Source: a virus. Taken from it: DNA of 64,000 nucleotides. The notes under the pieces were generated by a model. The model saw nothing but the letters and a program-made list of their open reading frames with translations, had not been told where the DNA came from and ran no database searches. Of this stretch, positions 3,676 through 50,641 are shown in pieces (position 1 is the stretch's first letter; each line of letters opens with the position of its first letter). The DNA lies in the IMG/VR virus record IMGVR_UViG_3300037851_000359, positions 64,001 through 128,000 of that record. The stretch is one strand, 5' to 3'. A program made the translations under genes and the position numbers.

Positions 3676-4625
3676 GATAAAAATACCTTTTTAAATTTTT
3701 CCATTACCTTAGAGGCAGAAAAAGTTTCATATGAATTATTTGTATAATTTATAGGTTTTTGAAAATTCATAATTATATTATAAAAAGAATTATAATCATT
3801 ATAAGTAATAGCACAATCTTTAAGAATATGCAAATGAGATTGTTCTATACTATTACTATATGTGATAATAGGTTTATTTTTAATAGAAAATTCAGCAATT
3901 GCCAATCCAAAGGTTTCCCCTCTTGTTCTAGCATGGATCATAGCATCACAAGTATTAATAAAATTAACTTTCATATTAAGATCATGAGTTCCTGGCAAAT
4001 ATTTAATATTGTGATGATTATGAAAACTGTCAATATTCATAAAAATAAAATAAATATCATTTCTTACTGTTAAAATATTTTTTATTGATTGTTTCACAAA
4101 GTCAATATCAAATGAATCATTGCCCCCATAATATCCAAAAACTAATTTATCAATAGGTATTCCTAATACGGATCTTAAATTATCGTCATTATGAGGCAAT
4201 TCAACTATATGGGGAACAAACTCATAGTTATTGAGAGAATCACTTGGAACACTATAATTTCTTAACCATTCTGAAACATATACATAAGTATTTCCAAACG
4301 GTTGAAATGCCGGAAACACTACATGTATTCCAACCTTACAATTACTAGGAATAGGTTCGGGATACCCAGCACAAATTTTATATATACAATCTAATTGAAG
4401 TGTATGAACAATTGATTCTAATTCAGACATGGATTTATAACTATAAATATTATTAAATTCGTTTATAAATTTATTTCTTGCTGGGTTTTTATATTCTGGT
4501 TGATTTCCATTAATAATAATAAACGATTCATTATTTAATAAAATTTTATTATATTTAGCATAATCAAACAATGCTATTTCAGTGCCTCGTAATGATAAAT
4601 GCTCAGTTAAAAATCCTATTTTCAT
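3672..4625 (-). CDS. GT-B (GT4-like) glycosyltransferase
   Basis: LRGTEIALFDYA N-terminus; CDAMIHARTRGETFGLAIAEF (EX7E motif). Confidence 0.85.
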   Translation of the reverse strand: MKIGFLTEHLSLRGTEIALFDYAKYNKILLNNESFIIINGNQPEYKNPARNKFINEFNNIYSYKSMSELESIVHTLQLDCIYKICAGYPEPIPSNCKVGIHVVFPAFQPFGNTYVYVSEWLRNYSVPSDSLNNYEFVPHIVELPHNDDNLRSVLGIPIDKLVFGYYGGNDSFDIDFVKQSIKNILTVRNDIYFIFMNIDSFHNHHNIKYLPGTHDLNMKVNFINTCDAMIHARTRGETFGLAIAEFSIKNKPIITYSNSIEQSHLHILKDCAITYNDYNSFYNIIMNFQKPINYTNNSYETFSASKVMEKFKKVFLS

Positions 4626-5245
4626 TTAATTTTCCTAAAACAATCATCAGAATCAACTTTCTCTACAAATTCATATTTAAATTTTGATAAATATTCTCTT
4701 ATATCTAATTGATTATAATTATTTTCGATAATAAAATAATCAATATTAATTTTATCAAAATTAATTGATTTAATGATAGACATTTCGCCACCTTCTACAT
4801 CAATTGAACAAAAATCGAAATTGAAAATATTGTATTGTTCACATATAGTCATAAGAGTTTTTGATGGAATTTGAATTTTATTTAATGACCCACCATACAT
4901 AGATATTTCACGATTAATACGATCAATATGTTTAGGATCATAAAAATCATATATACCAGATAACATTTCTGAATATCCATCAATTTGAGCAAAGGTAACA
5001 TTTCCATTTATTTCAGATATACAGCAATTATCACAGATACACTTTCTATTCAATATCAATTTTGAATATATTTTAGGATTAGGTTCAATACAAATTCCAT
5101 TCCAATTCAATTCTTGTTCAAAAAATAATGTATTATTTATAGTAACCCCATCATTAGCCCCAATGTCTAAAAATACCCCATTAAGTTTATTTTTAAAAAT
5201 TTTTTCATTTAAATACTTATCTTGACCTACTTGAGAGTGATACAT
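4622..5245 (-). CDS. FkbM-family methyltransferase
   Basis: YHSQVGQD, FLDIGANDG, WNGICIEP, SIDVEGGE. Confidence 0.9.
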   Translation of the reverse strand: MYHSQVGQDKYLNEKIFKNKLNGVFLDIGANDGVTINNTLFFEQELNWNGICIEPNPKIYSKLILNRKCICDNCCISEINGNVTFAQIDGYSEMLSGIYDFYDPKHIDRINREISMYGGSLNKIQIPSKTLMTICEQYNIFNFDFCSIDVEGGEMSIIKSINFDKINIDYFIIENNYNQLDIREYLSKFKYEFVEKVDSDDCFRKIK

Positions 5246-5254
5246 AATTTTCCT

Positions 5255-6064
5255 TTATTGTTTTTCAATTGAACTATAAACGCATCCATTATATTTAGAT
5301 GAAAATTGCAATTTTACACGATTGCAATCTATAATATTATAATTCTCATATTTTATATTATAATTTCCTATTTTACTTCTATGAATTGCAAAATGATCAG
5401 CAGGATAATCAATCTTTGGTTGTAGTAAAATATATTGATAATTTAATAAATAGTTAATAATTTCTTGCGAAGAACTATTAAATTTATTTAAATATGGTTC
5501 TTCTAATTCTATACAAAAATTTGGAAAAAATTTATCAATAATATTAGACAAGGATACCAAAACTTTAAATTCATATCCTTGTATATCAAGTTTAATAAAA
5601 TCTATTTTTTCTAAATTTAAATCCATTAAACTTATAGTGTCAACTAGGTCTTCCCCATTTTCAACCGATAGCCCCCCTATATTAGTATAATTTTCAGTAA
5701 ATTGAATATTTGTCACCTTGACGCGGGTTTTAATATCAGATAATGCGTTATGATATGGAATCACATTATAACAACCATTCAATAAACAATTTGATAATAA
5801 TTGCCAATAAATGGTTCTAATGGGTTCAAACGAATATACTTTTCCTGCATTGCCAACTATTTTTGATAAATGTACGGTATGAAATCCTAAATTAGCACTA
5901 CAATCTATACAAGTATCGCCAAATTTAACAACAGAATTAACAAGATCTAAAAAATGATTCTCATAAATTGGATTGGTTTTTATTTCCAATCCAAGGGCAT
6001 CATACTTAGAAATTAAAAATTTATTTCCGTTTTTTTCAACAATTTCTAAAATATTATTATCCAT
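5255..6064 (-). CDS. FkbM-family methyltransferase
   Basis: IDCSANLGFHT (Gly replaced by Ser in motif I), VYSFEP, FIKLDIQGYE. Confidence 0.85.
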   Translation of the reverse strand: MDNNILEIVEKNGNKFLISKYDALGLEIKTNPIYENHFLDLVNSVVKFGDTCIDCSANLGFHTVHLSKIVGNAGKVYSFEPIRTIYWQLLSNCLLNGCYNVIPYHNALSDIKTRVKVTNIQFTENYTNIGGLSVENGEDLVDTISLMDLNLEKIDFIKLDIQGYEFKVLVSLSNIIDKFFPNFCIELEEPYLNKFNSSSQEIINYLLNYQYILLQPKIDYPADHFAIHRSKIGNYNIKYENYNIIDCNRVKLQFSSKYNGCVYSSIEKQ

Positions 6065-26549: not shown

Positions 26550-27518
26550 TTAATCTAAAAACATGTCCTCTATGTCAATTATATCGAATCGTGGAAGTGA
26601 CCATTTTAAAACATCATAAATTTTTGTAAGACAAGCAACGAATACTTTCTGCAACATTGTATCATAGTCTACTATTATATTCAATTCTTTTGGAAAGTCA
26701 TCTTTAAATGCTATTGAATCAATTTCCAAATCTAAACATTTGCATGATTTTATATATACAACTTTGACTTTATCACCTTCATTAATATAATCATATTTAT
26801 TTTCAAGATTCATCTTTTTTATTAACATATTATAAAAAATACATCCTTTTATATGCTGAGGACAACCTTTAATGGGGAATCCTGTAGATGGATCTGTATA
26901 TTTTGAAATATTATTAGCGGAAGATACTTTAGCTATTTCACTTGGGGTCAATTTCTTTAATTCATCATAAGTATTTCTTAAATAATTTTTAATTTGGGTT
27001 TCATTATTAATTTGAAGAACATTTTTATAAAAATCTTTTAATTTATCTCTAATAATATCAGGAATATTTGATCTTACTGATTCAAGACCTTTAACTTCAA
27101 TTTCGTGTTCGTCGCCTGCTGGAACGGGTCCATCTTCACCAATTATAACCCAAGCAGAATATCTTTTTTTAGCGATATAAAATGCCCGGCGAGCAATCAT
27201 TTCCCGTTTAAATATTAATTTATTATCTGGGCAATTCATCATTTTTATAGTTAATTTTTTCATAGCAGAATCAATAATTGCCGTTAATAATTTATTAATA
27301 TTATTATTAATAAATTCAGATGCTTTTTGATTATCATTATAATATTGATAATTGAATGATTTTAAAATTTTACCAACATTAACATAACACGAATTATGAA
27401 CCAAAATGTCATTGGCAAAAAAGGTATGCGGGGTATCTTTCATTCCAATATCATATACATCTTGATATTCATCTGATATTTCTTCTATAGATACAATTTC
27501 ATCAATTTCTGGAATCAT
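26550..27518 (-). CDS. gp43: DNA polymerase B C-terminal half with an N-terminal split-intein C fragment (42 aa)
   Basis: IntC VYDIGM...HTFFANDILVHN followed by Ser+1 (SCYVN); FKREMI, KKRY, VKGLESVRS polB motifs. Confidence 0.93.
   Translation of the reverse strand: MIPEIDEIVSIEEISDEYQDVYDIGMKDTPHTFFANDILVHNSCYVNVGKILKSFNYQYYNDNQKASEFINNNINKLLTAIIDSAMKKLTIKMMNCPDNKLIFKREMIARRAFYIAKKRYSAWVIIGEDGPVPAGDEHEIEVKGLESVRSNIPDIIRDKLKDFYKNVLQINNETQIKNYLRNTYDELKKLTPSEIAKVSSANNISKYTDPSTGFPIKGCPQHIKGCIFYNMLIKKMNLENKYDYINEGDKVKVVYIKSCKCLDLEIDSIAFKDDFPKELNIIVDYDTMLQKVFVACLTKIYDVLKWSLPRFDIIDIEDMFLD
27393..27518 (-). mobile_element. Split intein C-fragment (IntC)
   Basis: Blocks F and G ending HN|S. Confidence 0.9.
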
Positions 27519-27519
27519 A

Positions 27520-28635
27520 TTACCCTTTCAAGAAGGAAATAGTTTTAGTTAAAATGAGATCTGGATTTTCAGTCCAGTCATTTTCCCATATCACCAATAT
27601 ATCAGAAACTTCATTAGTTTCAAGGATTTTTTTTATACGAATATCATCGTACAACCATATGTCTTTTGCAATTTTACAACACTTATTTGGATAGTGAATT
27701 AATTCATCGGAATCATACATAGATGGATTAGCATGCCAATAATTTCCAAAAAATTCAATTGCTCGTTTATTGTTTTCGCAATAAAAATCAAGATAATAAC
27801 AAGAATTATCTTTTGCAATTATTAATTTTTCGCCATTATGAGAATTATAAAAACAATTATAAAACAAATTATTATCATTTAAACGCGAAAAAATTGAATC
27901 AAATAAAATTTTTGACGAATTTGATACTGAATAGGTTTTAAAATTATTATTTTCTCTCTTATTCAAAAATTCTAAATATTTAATCTTCCCTATTTCAGGT
28001 CCGAATTTATATACATAGGTTTCATATGAATGGGATTTTAAAAAATTGACTAATTTATATTTTTTCTCCCCCTTTTCTTTGCCATATTTTTCAATAAAAT
28101 ACTCCAATTTATTTGTATATGCTTGTTGACTGCAATAACGATTCCATTTTTCTAATCCAATTTCCTTTCCCCATTTTTTTATTAAATTTTCTTTTGTAAC
28201 GGATCTAGATTTATTAAATTCATCAAATTTTTTTTCATCCCATCCATATTTTTGTTTTTTATATTCATAGGTATTTTTTATTCTTTGTTTTTCACAATAT
28301 GTTTCCCATTTTTTAGTTCCTTCTTGTTTTCCATGTTTTTTAATAAAATTATCCAAAGTAACAGAATGATCATTTGCCCATTTAATTTTATTGATACTAG
28401 CATTTTCATGATTATCATTTTTAAAAATTCGAAAATATTCATAACTGCCCGGAATTCTTGACTTTGTAATAACTTCTGCTGTAGATTGTTCAAACCCTCT
28501 CAATAACCAATACTTTATATTCCGACAACTAATCCTTGATTTATTTTCACCATTATTTAATTTTATATTTTTTAATTTCCCCTCATTATGCAGATTTTTG
28601 ACAATAATTATTATTTTTTCATATTCAGTGTCCAT
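27520..28635 (-). CDS. Free-standing homing endonuclease, Vsr-like/EDxHD type, with N-terminal repeats
   Basis: C-terminal GEK..YYLDFYC..AIEFFGNYWH..DDIR..LVIWE; four K[HWYF]G..[EI]G..K[WY] repeats; sits between the split polymerase halves. Confidence 0.8.
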   Translation of the reverse strand: MDTEYEKIIIIVKNLHNEGKLKNIKLNNGENKSRISCRNIKYWLLRGFEQSTAEVITKSRIPGSYEYFRIFKNDNHENASINKIKWANDHSVTLDNFIKKHGKQEGTKKWETYCEKQRIKNTYEYKKQKYGWDEKKFDEFNKSRSVTKENLIKKWGKEIGLEKWNRYCSQQAYTNKLEYFIEKYGKEKGEKKYKLVNFLKSHSYETYVYKFGPEIGKIKYLEFLNKRENNNFKTYSVSNSSKILFDSIFSRLNDNNLFYNCFYNSHNGEKLIIAKDNSCYYLDFYCENNKRAIEFFGNYWHANPSMYDSDELIHYPNKCCKIAKDIWLYDDIRIKKILETNEVSDILVIWENDWTENPDLILTKTISFLKG

Positions 28636-28669
28636 ATTTTACTCCGACAGAACTACCTGTGTCCGTATA

Positions 28670-28677
28670 TATTTATA
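28670..28677 (-). promoter_or_regulatory. T4-type late promoter for the endonuclease
   Basis: TATAAATA ~35 nt upstream of ATG 28635; GGAG SD at 28642-28645. Confidence 0.65.
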
Positions 28678-28688
28678 AAAATAAACTA

Positions 28689-30854
28689 TCATTTTATACA
28701 AATTATTTTATCTCCCGGTGTTATTTCTTTTGGGGTTTTTTGTTTTAATATATCATTGACTAATATCATACAAGAATGATCTTCTGTTACATCTATATAT
28801 TTTCCAGATTTTGTTTTAATTCTATACATTTTCTTTTTTACAAAATGTCTTTCTATGAATTCAACCTTACCATATTTTATAATTTTTGATTCTTCATCAT
28901 AATATGGCAACGTCAATTTATCTGGAATTATATATTCTCTTCCGTTTGAATCAATATGATAAGTGTCAAAATTTTCATTTCCTAATACATTAAACAATTC
29001 TTTAATCTGCAATTTTTTTCCATCTTCAAGAGTTACTATAGAACCCCCCGCAATAGAATCTGTATCTTGATATATCATAACGCCATCATTAATATTTTTT
29101 GCATTATATGATTTTCCAATATTTGACAATTCCCAATTATTTTTAAAATAATTATCCAAAGCATCCCCTGATGCTACAATAGCTTGCTGTCCCGTTGAGG
29201 TTACGGCTAAAGCATTATCAATGTCAAACAATCTACTAAATTTTGACCCGACATAACCATACACAGAATTAATTAATATTTTATAATTTTTCTGTAATAA
29301 TTTATGAAGATTTTCATTTACATGATCCCCACTATCATGGCATTCAAATTGTTTTTTCTTATGATATTTTCTCTTCTCAAACCATTCTTTAACGAATTTA
29401 GGAACAATTCCAGTTTTTGATTGATCATAAACAGCACCATTAGTTGCAATTGAATATTTATTAGTTTTAATTAAATCAATTATATTTTTAACAGTATTTC
29501 CTAAATTATCAGCAATTTTATTTTCATTTTCTTCAGATAAGGTTTCACCATTTAATGCTTTCATGATATAAGGCACTATAAAATCAAAACATTTTCTAAC
29601 TTTAGTTTCTGGAGATATATTATGCATCATCATAATTGATGGATATAGAGAGGCAGCATCATATGACACTACCCAATCATGGCATCCCAAAACGGGATCA
29701 CGAACGAAAGCCCCCTCATATTCACCTTCTGCGGATCTATCGCAATCAGGCAAAATAATATGATCCAAGTATAATTTGGATAAAAAAGCTCCGTCTAGAA
29801 CTTTTGTAGTTTTTTCAAAATTTTCAAATTGTACTAAGCATCCATAAGATATAGATGCCAATAATTGCAAGAATCCATTTTTAATTTCTATTAAATTTAA
29901 AAGATTAACGTCTTGAATGTTATATTCGCAATATCGTTGCCAATCATTGTTATATAAATCTTTTAACGACCCTTCATATTCTAATTTAGCCCCCACCTTT
30001 TCAACTTTTGATGCTATATAATCCAGTTTAAATGAAGGTTGTTCTTTTTGTGTATATTTTTTATATAAATCAATATATTCAATAATATTAATTCCAACAA
30101 TTTCATAAATTTTAGTTTCTTTTACATTACCTTTTCCAAATTTAACTTGCTTAATACGTTCTCTAATATAACCTATTGGCGATAGCTTATTAACCATATT
30201 TTCGCTTAATAATTGTTTAGCTCTATTAATGATATAAGGAATATCGAATCGTGTTATATTCCATCCAGTTATAATGTCAGGATGTTGATTATTAATTACT
30301 GTTATAAACTTTTTTAGTAATGCTTCTTCGGTTCTACAAATAAATATTTCATCATTCGATGTTAATAATGGCCGACCTTTAATATCTTTTATATTAGTAT
30401 CGAATTCTTTTTCTGCAAAAACAAAATATTTTTTTTGCTTTGTTGAATATATGGTAATAATGGTTATAGGATGTTTTGCTTCTTCAGCATTAGGGAATCC
30501 AACTTCTGAATGGACCTCAATATCAATGAAAAATATATCAAGAACAGGTGGTTTAAATGGCATTCCAGCCCATTTTTGCATTATATATTTTGTTTCAATA
30601 TCAACATCAGATTCAAACATTTTTCTATTTGCTTCTTGATACATTTCTCGGGTTTCTTTATATTTACCCCAAGAATCAAATTCCATTTTTCGGACATAAT
30701 CACCGAAAATACTTTTATAATCAGTTTTTGAATCTGATTTTACATAAAAATATAGGGGGGCATCATCCTTGACATGAATTTTTTCCCCCCGATCATTATA
30801 TTCCCAAGAATGAATCTTATTTGATGATCGTGAAAAATAGATATAAGAAAACAT
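28689..30854 (-). CDS. gp43: DNA polymerase B N-terminal half (exonuclease + palm) with a C-terminal split-intein N fragment (122 aa)
   Basis: DIEV (ExoI), GWNITRFDIPY, YNIQDV, SYDAASLYPS, KILINSVYG, YQDTD|SIAGGS...TEDH. Confidence 0.95.
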   Translation of the reverse strand: MFSYIYFSRSSNKIHSWEYNDRGEKIHVKDDAPLYFYVKSDSKTDYKSIFGDYVRKMEFDSWGKYKETREMYQEANRKMFESDVDIETKYIMQKWAGMPFKPPVLDIFFIDIEVHSEVGFPNAEEAKHPITIITIYSTKQKKYFVFAEKEFDTNIKDIKGRPLLTSNDEIFICRTEEALLKKFITVINNQHPDIITGWNITRFDIPYIINRAKQLLSENMVNKLSPIGYIRERIKQVKFGKGNVKETKIYEIVGINIIEYIDLYKKYTQKEQPSFKLDYIASKVEKVGAKLEYEGSLKDLYNNDWQRYCEYNIQDVNLLNLIEIKNGFLQLLASISYGCLVQFENFEKTTKVLDGAFLSKLYLDHIILPDCDRSAEGEYEGAFVRDPVLGCHDWVVSYDAASLYPSIMMMHNISPETKVRKCFDFIVPYIMKALNGETLSEENENKIADNLGNTVKNIIDLIKTNKYSIATNGAVYDQSKTGIVPKFVKEWFEKRKYHKKKQFECHDSGDHVNENLHKLLQKNYKILINSVYGYVGSKFSRLFDIDNALAVTSTGQQAIVASGDALDNYFKNNWELSNIGKSYNAKNINDGVMIYQDTDSIAGGSIVTLEDGKKLQIKELFNVLGNENFDTYHIDSNGREYIIPDKLTLPYYDEESKIIKYGKVEFIERHFVKKKMYRIKTKSGKYIDVTEDHSCMILVNDILKQKTPKEITPGDKIICIK
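28692..29057 (-). mobile_element. Split intein N-fragment (IntN, Ser1)
   Basis: Begins SIAGGSIV directly after DTD; block B VTEDHS; ends at the stop codon with no C-terminal Asn. Confidence 0.9.
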
Positions 30855-31783: not shown

Positions 31784-32182
31784 ATGAAAAAATGCAAAAA
31801 ATGCGGAAAACCTATCACAAAAAGAACGGTATGTGAATCTTGCCGAAAAAAACATAACAGAGAGTTAAAAAGAGATTTTATTTTTAATATAACAGGAAAT
31901 AAATGTTGGTTATGCGGATATAATAAAGAACAATTTACTAAATTCCTATTATCATTCCATCATATGGAAAATAAAGAATTTTCAATAGCATTATCTAATA
32001 GTTTGAGACGACGAAATTTTTCAAAAATAATTAGAGAAATTAAAAAATGTATCTTGGTTTGTCATAACTGCCATGCGGAAATTCATAATACAAATTTAAT
32101 AAATCAAAATAAAATTTTAAAAATATATAAACAAAAATGGAAACAAATTATTAAACGATTTCCAGAATTAGAAAGTTTCTAA
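31784..32182 (+). CDS. HNH endonuclease with Zn ribbons
   Basis: CKKC..CESC, CWLCGY, SFHH..KEF, KCILVCHNCHAEIH; opposite strand to neighbours; own TGTTATAAT 5 nt before ATG. Confidence 0.8.
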   Translation: MKKCKKCGKPITKRTVCESCRKKHNRELKRDFIFNITGNKCWLCGYNKEQFTKFLLSFHHMENKEFSIALSNSLRRRNFSKIIREIKKCILVCHNCHAEIHNTNLINQNKILKIYKQKWKQIIKRFPELESF

Positions 32183-46735: not shown

Positions 46736-49700
46736 ATGGGTTATACAAGAGACGAAGCTATACAAGCGTCAACCAAATACTTTAATGGCGATGAATTGGC
46801 CGCAAAAGTATTCGTTGATAAATATTCACTCAAAAATAATAATGATGAATATTTAGAATTAACTCCTGATGATATGCATAAACGTCTTGCTAAAGAATTT
46901 GCAAGAATTGAACAAAAATACCCCAACCCATTGTCAGAACAAGAAATATATCATTTTTTCAAAAATTTTAAATATATTGTTCCTCAAGGTTCGCCAATGT
47001 CAGCTATTGGAAATAATCATTTTATTCAATCTACTTCAAATTGTTTTGTTTTGGAATCCCCAAGTGATTCATATGGTGGAATTTTGAAAACCGATCAAGA
47101 ACAAGCACAATTAATGAAGCGGCGTGGTGGTGTTGGTTTTGATATTTCAACTATTCGACCAAAAGGATTGCCCACAAAAAATGCCGCTAAAACAACGGAT
47201 GGTATTGCTCTATTTATGGAACGATTTAGCAATACAACCCGTGAAGTTGCCCAAGGAGGTCGGCGTGGTGCCTTATTAATGTCAATATCTGTTCATCACC
47301 CAGAAATTGAAACTTTTATTAATATTAAAAAAGATAAAACAAAGGTTACTGGTGCAAATATTTCAGTTAAAGTTACTGATGAATTTATGAATGCGGTTAA
47401 AAATAATTCAGATTATGAACAACGCTGGCCAATTAATTCAAAAAATCCTTCAATAATTAAAAAAGAAAATGCTAAAAAAATATGGGATATGTTAATATCT
47501 GCTGCTTGGGAAAGTGCGGAACCTGGAATTCTATTTTGGGATACTGCTCAAAAATATACCCCATCAGATATTTATAAAGATTTTGGGTTTGAATCGGTTT
47601 CGACAAATCCTTGTTTAGTTGGAGATACTAAAGTTTATGTTGCTGATGGAAGAGGCGAAGTTGCTATTAAAGAACTTGCTGAAATTGGAAATGATGTTGA
47701 TGTATTTTGTTACGATAATAATGGAAAAATAGTAATTCGAAAAATGAGAAATCCAAGAATCACTGGATATGATCAAAAAATATTTAAAGTTACTTTTGAT
47801 GATGGAAATTCCATTGAATGTACCGAAAATCATAAATTGAGAATGATTGATGGTACTTACAAAGAAATTAAAAATATTCAAATTGGGGAACAAGTTGGTA
47901 TTATAACTAAATATGAAGAATCCATAAATAACACTATCACTAAAACGCCAAAAAATGGTAAAGATTATTATTGGTTAAAAAATGGAAATAATACTATATG
48001 TGAGCATCGACTTATTGCAAGTCATAATAACGGAAACAATTTAGATTATAATATGGTAGTTCATCATAAAGATTATAATACAAAAAACAATTGCCCAGAC
48101 AATTTACAGATAATGTCAAAAAAAGAGCATGATTTACTTCATGCTCAGGATATGATTGGTGATAATAATCCAATGAGAAGAGCAAAAACTGAATGGTCTG
48201 CGGAAAAATGGGAACAATATTCAAAAAATATGTCAGCATCAGTTTCCGGCAAAAAAAATGGACGATATTGTGGAAAAGATAATAATGAATTAAAGAGACA
48301 TGCTATTATACTAACTAAATTATTGAATAGAAGATTTACTTATATGGAATGGAATGAATATGCGGAAAAAAATAATTTACCAAAAAATTTCTCAAAATAC
48401 AGAAAACAAGAATTTGGAAATGTAATAGAATTTTCTAAAATGGCTGCCAAAGAGTGCGGTATTGAATATATAGATGAAGATCCTCGACTTGTAACAACTC
48501 TTAACAAAGCTATTGAACAAGGGTATGAATCTATAATAGAAAATAATGAAGTATTAGTTAAACGTATTTGTGAAAGTTGCAAGACTGAATATTTTATTAA
48601 TTATAGTCAGCGGGAATCCGCGTATTGTTCTCCGAAATGTGTTAAAGGAAATAATGCTTTTATTACTCTTAATAATGATCCTAAATTTCAAGAAAATCGA
48701 CAAAGAAAAGTACGGGAATCATATTCAGAAAAAATGAAAAATATAAAAAGAAAACAGTTAGATTTGTACACAAAACTTAAATTTGAAATGGGTGAAGAAC
48801 CATTATTAAAAGATTTTTATAAAAAATGTCAGGAAATAAATCTTTCATGTAGATTCAAAACAAAATTTGGATTTGCATCATATAAAGAATTACAACAAGA
48901 AGCATCATTACATAATCATCGAATTTCAAAAATTGAATACCTTAGAAATGATACAGTTTACAATGGCACTGTAGATGAATATCATAATTTTTTCATAGGT
49001 GGATTTGAAGGCATCCACACAAACGGAAAACGTAAGTCTTGTTATATCAATAATTTGAATTGCGGTGAGATAGTTTTGTCAAACGCGGATTCTTGCCGCT
49101 TAATTTCTATGAATCTTTTAAATTTTGTTGATAATCCTTTTACTGAAAAGGCTTTATATAATTTTAAGAATTTTTCTGATGCTGTTAATATTGCTCAACG
49201 ATTAATGGATGATATGATTGATCTTGAATTAGAAAAAGTTAATTTAATAATCAATAAAATAAAATCAGATCCAGAATCAGAAGATGTTAAAAGCATTGAA
49301 TTAAAATTATGGGAAAATATTAAAAATGCTTGTCAAAATGGTCGTCGTACTGGTCTTGGTATAACTGCTCTAGGAGACACTATTGCTGCTCTTGGGGTAA
49401 AATATGGTTCAGAAGAATCAATAAAAATAACAGAAGAAATATATAAAACTTTAGCAATAAATTCTTATAAATCATCAATTATTATGGCAAAAGAACGGGG
49501 ATCATTCCCAATTTGGAATTTAGAATTAGAAAAAAAACATCCATTCTTAGATCGTATTTTAAATGAATTAGATGCTGATACTATTAAAATATATAAACAA
49601 TATGGCCGTAGAAATATTGCAAATACAACAACTGCTCCGACTGGATCAGTTTCTATTATGACACAAACCACATCAGGAATTGAGCCTGCATTCCTGGTTA

Positions 49701-50641
49701 AATATACCAGACGGAAAAAGATTTCTGAAAATGAAAAACATATTAAACCAGACTTTGTTGACGCAATGGGTGATAAATGGCAAGAGTTTGAAGTATATCA
49801 TCATCAATTTAAAAAATGGATGGAAATAACTGGAAAAAATAAAATCGAAGAATCCCCTTATCATAACGCAATGTCAAATGATATTAATTGGGTTAATGGG
49901 GTTAAAATTCAATCGGTTGCTCAAAAATGGATAGATCATTCAATAAGTAAAACATGTTGTCTTCCAAATAGTGTAACTAAAGAACAAGTTGCAGAAGTCT
50001 ATATGGCTGCTTGGGAACATAAATGCAAAGGATTTACTGTTTATCGTGACGGTTGCAGGGATGGGGTTCTTGTATCAACTACTAAAAAAGAAACTTCAAA
50101 TAAAATTTTAAAAACCAATGCTCCAAAACGTCCTAAAGAATTACCTTGTGATATTCATCATGTTAAAATTGTTAAAAAATTAGATAAGATTCGTTCATTA
50201 GAATATATTGTTATTGTTGGATTATTAAATGATGATCCTTATGAAATTTTTGTCTTTGAAAATAGTGCTTTGGATAAAAAATATACTAATGCAATTCTTG
50301 TTAAAAAATCAAGAGGAAAATATTCTATAAAGTTGGACGAAAACGTTGAAATTGAAGATATTATGAAGAATCAAACTGAAGAAGAGGAAATGATTACGAG
50401 GCTTGCTTCTACTGCTTTACGGCATGGTACTGATATTTCATTCTTAGTTCATCAATTAGAAAAAGTTAAAGGTGATCATATTGGATCATTTACTAAAGTT
50501 ATGGGTAGAACCCTCAAGAAATATATTAAAGATGGTACTAAAATATCTGGAAGTAAATGCCCCGAATGCGGACAAGAATCATTAATTCGTGAAAATGGTT
50601 GCACTATTTGTAAAAATTGTGGCAATTCTAAATGCGGTTAG
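46736..50641 (+). CDS. nrdJ: Class II (B12-dependent) ribonucleotide reductase with an intein
   Basis: PQGSP, SNCFV, RGGVG, GRRGALL, EPG, TNP|C...N|CGEI, RRTGLG, TAPTGS, SISKT, KGFTVYRDG, C-terminal Zn ribbon. Confidence 0.92.
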   Translation: MGYTRDEAIQASTKYFNGDELAAKVFVDKYSLKNNNDEYLELTPDDMHKRLAKEFARIEQKYPNPLSEQEIYHFFKNFKYIVPQGSPMSAIGNNHFIQSTSNCFVLESPSDSYGGILKTDQEQAQLMKRRGGVGFDISTIRPKGLPTKNAAKTTDGIALFMERFSNTTREVAQGGRRGALLMSISVHHPEIETFINIKKDKTKVTGANISVKVTDEFMNAVKNNSDYEQRWPINSKNPSIIKKENAKKIWDMLISAAWESAEPGILFWDTAQKYTPSDIYKDFGFESVSTNPCLVGDTKVYVADGRGEVAIKELAEIGNDVDVFCYDNNGKIVIRKMRNPRITGYDQKIFKVTFDDGNSIECTENHKLRMIDGTYKEIKNIQIGEQVGIITKYEESINNTITKTPKNGKDYYWLKNGNNTICEHRLIASHNNGNNLDYNMVVHHKDYNTKNNCPDNLQIMSKKEHDLLHAQDMIGDNNPMRRAKTEWSAEKWEQYSKNMSASVSGKKNGRYCGKDNNELKRHAIILTKLLNRRFTYMEWNEYAEKNNLPKNFSKYRKQEFGNVIEFSKMAAKECGIEYIDEDPRLVTTLNKAIEQGYESIIENNEVLVKRICESCKTEYFINYSQRESAYCSPKCVKGNNAFITLNNDPKFQENRQRKVRESYSEKMKNIKRKQLDLYTKLKFEMGEEPLLKDFYKKCQEINLSCRFKTKFGFASYKELQQEASLHNHRISKIEYLRNDTVYNGTVDEYHNFFIGGFEGIHTNGKRKSCYINNLNCGEIVLSNADSCRLISMNLLNFVDNPFTEKALYNFKNFSDAVNIAQRLMDDMIDLELEKVNLIINKIKSDPESEDVKSIELKLWENIKNACQNGRRTGLGITALGDTIAALGVKYGSEESIKITEEIYKTLAINSYKSSIIMAKERGSFPIWNLELEKKHPFLDRILNELDADTIKIYKQYGRRNIANTTTAPTGSVSIMTQTTSGIEPAFLVKYTRRKKISENEKHIKPDFVDAMGDKWQEFEVYHHQFKKWMEITGKNKIEESPYHNAMSNDINWVNGVKIQSVAQKWIDHSISKTCCLPNSVTKEQVAEVYMAAWEHKCKGFTVYRDGCRDGVLVSTTKKETSNKILKTNAPKRPKELPCDIHHVKIVKKLDKIRSLEYIVIVGLLNDDPYEIFVFENSALDKKYTNAILVKKSRGKYSIKLDENVEIEDIMKNQTEEEEMITRLASTALRHGTDISFLVHQLEKVKGDHIGSFTKVMGRTLKKYIKDGTKISGSKCPECGQESLIRENGCTICKNCGNSKCG
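47612..49060 (+). mobile_element. Cis intein (483 aa) with an HNH endonuclease at the RNR NPCGE active site
   Basis: CLVGDT start, TENH block B, EHRLIA..VHHKDYNTKNNCPDNL HNH, VYNGTVDEYHNF block F, ends NLN|C. Confidence 0.92.

Follow-up and report, generated by a model that had tools for sequence, protein, structure and literature searches.

How a phage could obtain a working replicative DNA polymerase from a gene that is broken inside its catalytic motif C is the question raised by a locus in the IMG/VR virus record IMGVR_UViG_3300037851_000359. The window analyzed here is the 64,000-nucleotide (nt) stretch at bases 64001-128000 of this 136,758-base record, whose CheckV completeness is 53%; the G+C content of the window is about 25-30%, that is, the DNA is AT-rich. 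Three consecutive open reading frames (ORFs) lie on the minus strand at 28689-30854 (721 amino acids, aa), 27520-28635 (371 aa) and 26550-27518 (322 aa), encoding in this order, and all on one strand, the N-terminal part of a family B DNA polymerase (PolB) with an N-terminal intein fragment (IntN), an endonuclease, and a C-terminal intein fragment (IntC) followed by the C-terminal part of the polymerase. We consider it very likely that the locus represents a fractured gene, namely the gp43-type polB of an uncultured T4-like phage, in which a class 1 intein at xDTD/S (the slash marks the insertion point) has been split by a Vsr-like homing endonuclease gene. An earlier note on this DNA had described the locus in these terms, and its coordinates, lengths and motifs agreed in every number with the ORF list and the junction residues; its central claim, a polB fractured by a Ser1/Ser+1 split intein with a Vsr-like endonuclease gene between the halves, was borne out by the layout, Pfam, the match to the structure 9HTH and the homology with Aeromonas phage Aes123.

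The N-extein (residues 1-599; 29058-30854, minus strand) comprises the exonuclease domain and the palm and fingers up to motif C, as assigned with Pfam, phrog_262 and the gp43 structures. The N-part was identified as a family B polymerase by the Pfam families DNA_pol_B (E 4.1e-30) and DNA_pol_B_exo1 (E 2.8e-28), by the phrog_262 DNA polymerase profile (E 7.8e-144) and by the RB69/T4 gp43 structures (E 3e-56). YQDTD occupies residues 595-599 of the first ORF, and the remaining 122 residues start with SIAGGS. In the third ORF, the first 42 residues end in ILVHN and are followed by SCYVNV, so that the C-extein of 280 aa (26550-27392, minus strand), which contains the thumb and the C-terminal part, starts at Ser+1 and has Cys at position +2. 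It matched positions 581-844 of the 856 in phrog_262 (E 4.2e-57) and residues 623-881 of RB69 gp43 (E 1.2e-17), with Ser43 of the query opposite Ser624 of RB69; therefore, the break lies exactly after the last, catalytic Asp of motif C. The same insertion point was found in relatives, since DTD was followed by Ser in 68 of 69 related N-parts and by Thr in the remaining one. The YQDTD variant at the junction had been thought worthy of notice, and this was not upheld: the residue before DTD was G in 26 of these N-parts, I in 14, S in 9, M in 6, C in 4, V in 3, N in 3, T in 2 and A in 1, with GDTD followed by Thr in one more row. Gln was absent from the 69, and this position is plainly free to vary.

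IntN (122 aa; 28692-29057, minus strand, with the stop codon at 28689-28691) and IntC (42 aa; 27393-27518, minus strand) were each recognized by the Pfam family Intein_splicing. The N-part matched profile positions 1-93 of 155 with residues 607-718 (30.2 bits) and the C-part matched positions 121-155 with residues 6-42 (16.7 bits), both below the Pfam cut-off of 35.8 bits, as half a domain would be. In the Protein Data Bank (PDB), the best match of IntN was PI-PkoII (2CW7, E 2.4e-5), followed by the Aes123 PolB1 intein (9HTH, E 3.1e-5; IntN residues 1-120), and phrog_27191 (E 3.8e-20) spanned residues 520-718 of the N-part. PI-PkoII, from Thermococcus kodakarensis, is contiguous and carries an in-frame endonuclease domain (537 aa), unlike the window intein; we take it to be inserted at the same motif C site. 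PI-TkoII is listed as one of the cis-inteins whose chemistry is of the Ser1/Ser+1(Thr+1) kind (PMC10189870). A group I intron was ruled out as the cause of the interruption, with the intein blocks in frame and the middle gene a separate ORF.

The conservation of the catalytic positions was examined in the N-parts of 69 related inteins taken from 82 loci, which gave 57 distinct rows with the window included. Ser1 (Ser600 of the N-part, directly after YQDTD) was Ser in 56 of the 57 rows and Thr in one. The NX motif Arg70-His71 was almost invariant (Arg or Lys at 70 in 57/57, His71 in 56/57); this motif is a signature of Ser1/Ser+1(Thr+1) inteins, in which His always follows Arg or Lys (PMC10189870). 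Block B reads T91-E-D-H94, and Thr91, Asp93 and His94 were each present in 57/57. IntC carries the block F Asp (VYDIGM) and the block G motif ILVHN, and in an alignment of 14 sequences, which together with Pfam defines this fragment, D23, G25, M26, P30-A35, I38-N42 (including H41) and S43 were invariant. Since all catalytic residues are present and conserved, class 1 oxyester splicing would have its sequence-level requirements in place. IntN contains two Cys residues, Cys96 and Cys120, and IntC none. Both had been proposed to be non-catalytic, and the alignment agreed with this, with position 96 occupied by L in 20 rows, C in 11, V in 10 and I in 9, and position 120 mostly by T, S, V or N.

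Considering these residues, and by homology with characterized relatives, we have proposed a plausible route from the broken gene to the intact enzyme. The net charge of IntC is -10 and that of the last 52 residues of IntN is +6. The acidic IntC would capture the basic C-terminal lobe of IntN, whereupon the Hint domain would fold; the opposite charges agree with the 'capture and collapse' mode, driven by electrostatics, in which Aes123 and other split inteins are described to assemble (PMC11923092). Ser1 would then undergo an N-O acyl shift, aided by Thr91 and His94 together with His71 of the NX motif, Ser+1 would attack the resulting oxyester, and Asn42 would cyclize with the help of His41. 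A final O-N shift would yield a polymerase of 879 aa with the restored motif YQDTD-SCYVNV. As had been claimed, motif C would be expected to become intact through protein trans-splicing.

The gene between the halves (27520-28635, minus strand) encodes a protein of 371 aa and was assigned as a free-standing Vsr-like homing endonuclease gene with phrog_22677 (E 4e-53), tblastn and an alignment of homologues. The tblastn search found 47 phage records, among them 14 of Prevotella Lak phages, 11 of Pseudomonas, 9 of Aeromonas and 4 of Campylobacter phages; the genes annotated as 'putative VSR endonuclease' in Aes123, Aes509 and Aes144 matched residues 91-366 with 31% identity (E 1e-22 to 7e-23). 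When 1.84 billion cluster representatives were searched exhaustively, 3183 matched with E <= 0.001, 1126 with E <= 1e-10 and 384 with E <= 1e-30; the closest was 43% identical. The core residues of the C-terminal nuclease part are D283, E294, H301, D330 and W350-E351, with D330 inside a conserved IW..D..K stretch. D283, E294, G297, H301, N303 and W350 were invariant in 27 aligned homologues, and all of them are kept in the window protein. The N-terminal half (residues ~96-226) consists of about five copies of a module of 22-25 aa, K-[YWF]-G-x-E-x-G-x-x-K-[WY]..Y, whose Gly and Tyr positions were invariant in the 27 homologues; no Pfam family matched these modules when the window protein and its homologues were scanned, and the region is presumably the DNA-binding part.

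The fold of the nuclease core was approached with a profile of the 27 homologues. Against the PDB, this profile matched the endonuclease-like protein 3HRL (E 0.0035) and, weakly, Vsr (1ODG, 1VSR and 1CW0; E 1.1-1.5). In the weak Vsr alignment, D283 stands opposite the Asp of DFV, E..G...H opposite HGCFWH, and the Asp of IW..D opposite the Asp of ERD; in terms of the EDxHD family (PMC3239194), whose prototype is I-Bth0305I according to the same paper, the core would line up with Vsr D51, H69 and D97 and place an extra Glu at the position of Vsr F62, a correspondence that has the same E values of 1.1-1.5. Searching the PDB up to E 10 did not bring up I-Bth0305I itself (3R3P) with either the single sequence or the profile, and the single sequence gave only a chance match (4N1J, E 0.48). 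On the 27 members, Pfam recognized PF18741 (REase_MTES_1575) in 13 and DUF559 in 9; neither was found in the endonuclease of the window at E <= 0.05. We use the label 'Vsr-like', and not that of a proven EDxHD member, because it is based on the annotation of the homologues and on weak profile evidence.

Possible expression signals lie around the endonuclease gene. A spacer of 53 nt (28636-28688, minus strand), read directly from the sequence, holds the T4-type late-promoter word TATAAATA at 28670-28677 on the minus strand, and a GGAG ribosome-binding word lies nine bases before the endonuclease ATG. The word TATAAATA occurred within 120 nt upstream in 14 of 29 homologous endonuclease genes. 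At the other end, the endonuclease stop codon (27520-27522) and the IntC ATG (27516-27518) are 1 nt apart without coding overlap; AAGGG stands just upstream of the ATG, and the C-part appears to have a ribosome-binding word of its own there, within the endonuclease gene's 3' end. A scan for sigma-70 promoters and terminators told little in DNA so rich in AT, with 53 promoter-like sites vs 40.5 expected. Expression of the endonuclease would probably be late and directed by the TATAAATA word of the spacer, and the enzyme would cut alleles free of the endonuclease gene and copy itself into them by recombination.

Comparable loci are already on record. The annotation of Aeromonas phage Aes123 (GenBank JN377899.1) follows the gene order of the window: gp43B1 with its putative N-intein comes first, then the gene for a 'putative VSR endonuclease', then gp43B2 with its putative C-intein. 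All three parts occur in that order in Campylobacter phage F379 as well. The Aes123 PolB1 intein agrees with that of the window in host gene, xDTD/S site, Ser1/Ser+1 chemistry, split at the endonuclease position, Lys/Arg-His of the NX motif, T..DH and ILVHN motifs, and a homologous endonuclease gene between the halves; its fragments are of similar size (IntN of 120 vs 122 aa and IntC of 39 vs 42 aa). The two loci differ in that the polB of Aes123 is in three pieces (gp43A, gp43B1 and gp43B2) and that of the window in two, in that the Aes123 endonuclease gene overlaps both neighbors whereas spacers of 53 nt and 1 nt separate the genes in the window, and in block F, which is of the VYDIGM..TPHTFFAN type in the window and VYDIEV..NHNFF in Aes123. 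A global alignment over IntN plus IntC gave identities of 31.6% to Aes123 and 34.7% to F379; the same method gave 51.2% for Aes123 against F379, near the published 52.4% for CP21 against Aes123.

Several inteins of this kind have been characterized. Aes123 PolB1 is a cysteine-less split intein that is used as a tool, was engineered into the variants CL and CLm, and splices to ~30% (PMC11923092). CP21 PolB1, LCGC14 PolB2 and GOM-OPS-1 PolB2, which come from T4-like phages or marine-sediment metagenomes, are likewise Ser1/Ser+1 inteins with an IntN of 115-120 aa and an IntC of 39-46 aa, with the NX histidine and one non-conserved Cys each, as against two in the window IntN (PMC12707363). Their reported trans-splicing yields are ~40% for CP21, ~95% for LCGC14 and ~59% for GOM-OPS-1, and their identities to Aes123 are 31.7-52.4%, with the orthogonal LCGC14 at 35%; the identity of 31.6% between the window intein and Aes123 is about in this range, the three being compared here through their published description (PMC12707363). 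GOM-OPS-1 has Cys at +2, as the window has, and the LCGC14 and GOM-OPS-1 PolB2 inteins were aligned with those of Aes123, CP21 and MIJ3 in the same paper (PMC12707363). F379 is, like CP21, a Campylobacter phage. In the Pseudomonas jumbo phage MIJ3, polB also consists of two halves that flank an endonuclease gene, and the printed blocks VTEDHS, VYDIGM and ILVHNS, on which this likeness is based, match the motifs of the window; its authors assigned the endonuclease to the HNH family, unlike the Vsr-like gene of the window (PMC6892783).

The arrangement as a whole corresponds to the fractured genes that Dassa et al. described in 2009 (PMC2677866), in which host gene halves carry the parts of a split intein, a free-standing Vsr-like endonuclease gene lies between them on the same strand with TATAAATA upstream of it, and the 3' end of the endonuclease gene abuts the start of IntC. 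Among the enzyme types listed in that paper there is no PolB-type polymerase, the type found in the window. Hairpins were reported upstream of the endonuclease gene in 15 of 16 fractured genes, 10 of them with TATAAATA, and in 15 loci the end of the endonuclease gene was described to overlap the IntC coding sequence by 6-69 bp, a common trait but not an obligatory one (PMC2677866); the window differs in having a gap of 1 nt in place of the overlap and a weak hairpin. The earlier note was correct in its background on fractured genes and on PolB split inteins as tools (PMC2677866, PMC11923092, PMC12707363). Its implication that the split intein is of a new kind did not hold, since the alignment with known PolB split inteins placed the window intein at the same insertion site and in a known family. 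The intein is broken at the usual homing-endonuclease position, and the comparison identifies it as a homologue, at the same site, of the published split inteins Aes123 PolB1, CP21 PolB1 and that of MIJ3.

The C-part had 169 homologues at E <= 1e-10, of which the closest was 57% identical, and the best 120 of the 169 were classified. Among these 120, 78 started with an IntC ending in HN/S and 6 with one ending in HN/C, 14 had a later junction with DTD[STC] upstream of it, that is, contiguous inteins, and 22 had no junction. The window intein is thus a new sequence, with no C-part relative more than 57% identical, within a published, characterized and very widespread intein family. The six homologues with HN/C (P0015, P0019, P0021, P0022, P0023 and P0027) had a short IntC ending in ILVHN followed by CDTDS; therefore, a related intein there sits one residue before DTD and has Cys+1, which by these sequences would make it a neighboring site of insertion within this motif, where the chemistry is another one.

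A search of viral contigs with the single C-part sequence found no relative, and the 14-sequence alignment as query found 157 contigs. The loci of the best 80 of these 157 IMG/VR contigs and two GenBank loci, 82 in all, were classified; the count of Ser+1 in this set is biased because the search pattern required HN and then Ser. Split inteins with a homologous endonuclease gene were found at 25 loci and at 6 more in which IntN was below the BLAST threshold. The others were 17 split inteins without an endonuclease gene, 3 split inteins with a different insert, 25 contiguous inteins and 6 loci without an IntN match. One close relative, L004, has a contiguous polymerase of 1055 aa with a mini-intein. 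In another, L005, the gap holds a different gene of 485 aa (4500-5957 of that locus) with Cys/His repeats and an IEYNG..WH core; its product has three CP.HGEF..Q......H.SG.GC..C repeats, the nuclease-like core IEYNG.FWH and an extra C-terminal domain. L005, together with L003, has the N-extein most similar to that of the window among the relatives (56%), and in both the insert may represent the replacement of one endonuclease by another in the same intein gap.

The states of the loci were then compared with a quick maximum-likelihood tree of IntN (119 columns, 70 rows), of which only the broad pattern is trustworthy because the alignment is short and the search was quick. The states barely clustered, with 29 changes vs 33.8 under shuffled labels, and the well-supported branches alone forced at least 5-7 changes per state. 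The window intein fell into a group of 15 rows with 97% support that contained 5 contiguous inteins, 5 with an endonuclease gene, 3 without one and 2 with another insert. L063, which has the endonuclease gene, and L064, which has a remnant matching residues 147-180, had identical IntN sequences, and the distance between the IntN of L020 (no endonuclease) and those of L011 and L014 (endonuclease) was 0.006; these pairs indicate recent gain or loss of the endonuclease. The intermixing of contiguous, split, endonuclease-bearing and endonuclease-free forms is what the gain-and-loss cycle proposed in 2009 would produce, and these sequence comparisons support that gene-breaking model without extending it.

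Several findings weigh against a fractured polymerase that is restored by trans-splicing and still mobilized by its endonuclease. The characterized relatives often splice incompletely in vitro, with yields of 30-59% (PMC11923092, PMC12707363), and as the record is 53% complete, the rest of the genome may contain another polymerase gene that is not interrupted; in the 136.8-kb record itself, the polB N-part and the endonuclease gene each occur once. The available contigs of four sequencing runs bridge neither 27480-27560 nor 28600-29100. The best spacer hairpin has 5 bp and was not more stable than those of shuffled sequences (z 0.75), and TATAAATA occurred 43 times in the window vs 33.4 expected, a number that 3 of 100 shuffles reached; the single word in the spacer is only suggestive because this enrichment in AT-rich DNA is so slight. 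Residue 298 of the endonuclease is Asn, vs Asp in 25 of the 27 aligned homologues.

Incomplete splicing would suit a polymerase that works as a two-chain enzyme, held together by intein halves that are splicing-dead and act as a non-covalent clasp only. This mode of action has been assumed for some split gp43 enzymes and degenerate half-inteins, and an intein-free split gp43 of Aeromonas phages is indeed mentioned in PMC2677866. Such a clasp is hard to reconcile with the presence of Ser1, Arg70-His71, Thr91, His94, the block F Asp, His41-Asn42 and Ser+1, those of IntN being conserved in 56-57 of 57 rows. Moreover, an unspliced insert of 164 residues would sit in the active site, with motif C interrupted directly after its catalytic Asp. 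We therefore regard the two-chain enzyme as very improbable and trans-splicing of the fractured polymerase as the better account.

The unbridged junctions, in a record that is a metagenome assembly, raise the further question of whether the locus might have been misassembled or joined from two strains of phage. The same gene order in 25 of the 82 related loci, and in the 6 with IntN below the BLAST threshold, argues against this, as does the same order in the cultured phages Aes123 and F379; the reading frames, the 1-nt spacing of stop and start and the ribosome-binding words are also coherent. An artefact of this kind has hardly any probability in our judgment. Of the four sequencing runs, X1 contained all sampled words and may be the source; few of its pieces could be placed on the window, and no RNA run was listed. 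In the contigs of the other three runs (X2-X4), the extein-coding parts were found at 90-99% likeness and 27510-29051 only in scattered short stretches, of which the uncovered parts prove nothing. Four contig joints were listed with sides of 21-27 letters and were treated as spurious. Contigs from X3 and X4 have loose ends that start at 29052/29053, which is two codons into IntN. In X3, this end of 30 letters reads on in frame as C-extein-like sequence and not as an intein; it may belong to any related intein-free phage with a short conserved stretch in common, and was given no weight.

The third alternative concerns the endonuclease only and is compatible with a fractured, trans-spliced polymerase: the intein would splice while the endonuclease is decaying or inactive and the element is fixed. 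The Asn298 of the window replaces an Asp found not only in the aligned homologues but in 128 of the 149 representatives that have the motif, and endonuclease loss is frequent, as seen in the 17 of 82 loci that are split without an endonuclease gene and in L064, where only a remnant goes with the very IntN sequence that L063 has. However, the frame of 371 aa is open, D283, E294, G297, H301, N303 and W350 are kept, and in the Vsr profile alignment column 298 corresponds to the Cys of HGCFWH and not to an Asp or His named as catalytic by Taylor et al. Among the 149 representatives, residue 298 was N in 8, T in 6 and others in 7, and Asn looks tolerated because it recurs in these 8 full-length homologues; a significant loss of the active site through D298N was dismissed for the same reason. 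A decaying endonuclease is thus an unlikely explanation, and a fractured polB with a putatively active homing endonuclease is the one that we prefer.

Cysteine-less split inteins are sought for protein ligation under oxidizing conditions, and only two of them are described as splicing near-quantitatively (PMC12707363, published in 2025). A natural variant that is ~32-35% identical to characterized inteins, by the Aes123 and F379 values, is a reasonable candidate for this purpose, and one of very many. The window intein might be a third efficient, mutually orthogonal and fully cysteine-less split intein, because its identity to Aes123/CLm is ~32% (35% for LCGC14), its acidic IntC is free of Cys, and Cys occurs in IntN only at variable positions; on these sequence features we think it rather doubtful that it would combine all three properties. 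If it did, thiol-independent protein assembly from four segments would be possible. Apart from such use, the locus illustrates the homing cycle clearly.

The neighbors of polB form a T4-like replication module, with a DnaB-like helicase (phrog_19, E 1.7e-87), a UvsX-like recombinase (phrog_97, E 3.2e-62), a dUTPase, a topoisomerase II large subunit, a gp32-like single-strand DNA-binding protein and a ribonucleotide reductase. About 0.9 kb upstream of polB, on the opposite strand, a free-standing HNH endonuclease gene (phrog_2255, E 6.7e-18) lies at 31784-32182 (plus strand), which by its profile match appears to be a further mobile nuclease within the module. The large subunit of the ribonucleotide reductase (1301 aa; 46736-50641, plus strand) contains a second, contiguous intein of ~483 aa (~47612-49060) with a nested HNH_3 endonuclease domain, and the ORF matched the Pfam families Ribonuc_red_lgC (E 3.7e-84), Intein_splicing (E 8.2e-13) and HNH_3 (E 8.6e-08). 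This intein starts with Cys1 (STNP/CLVGD) and ends in NNLN before CGEIV (Cys+1), without a penultimate His. Two inteins in all were found across the 136.8-kb record, this Cys-type maxi-intein and the Ser-type split intein of polB.

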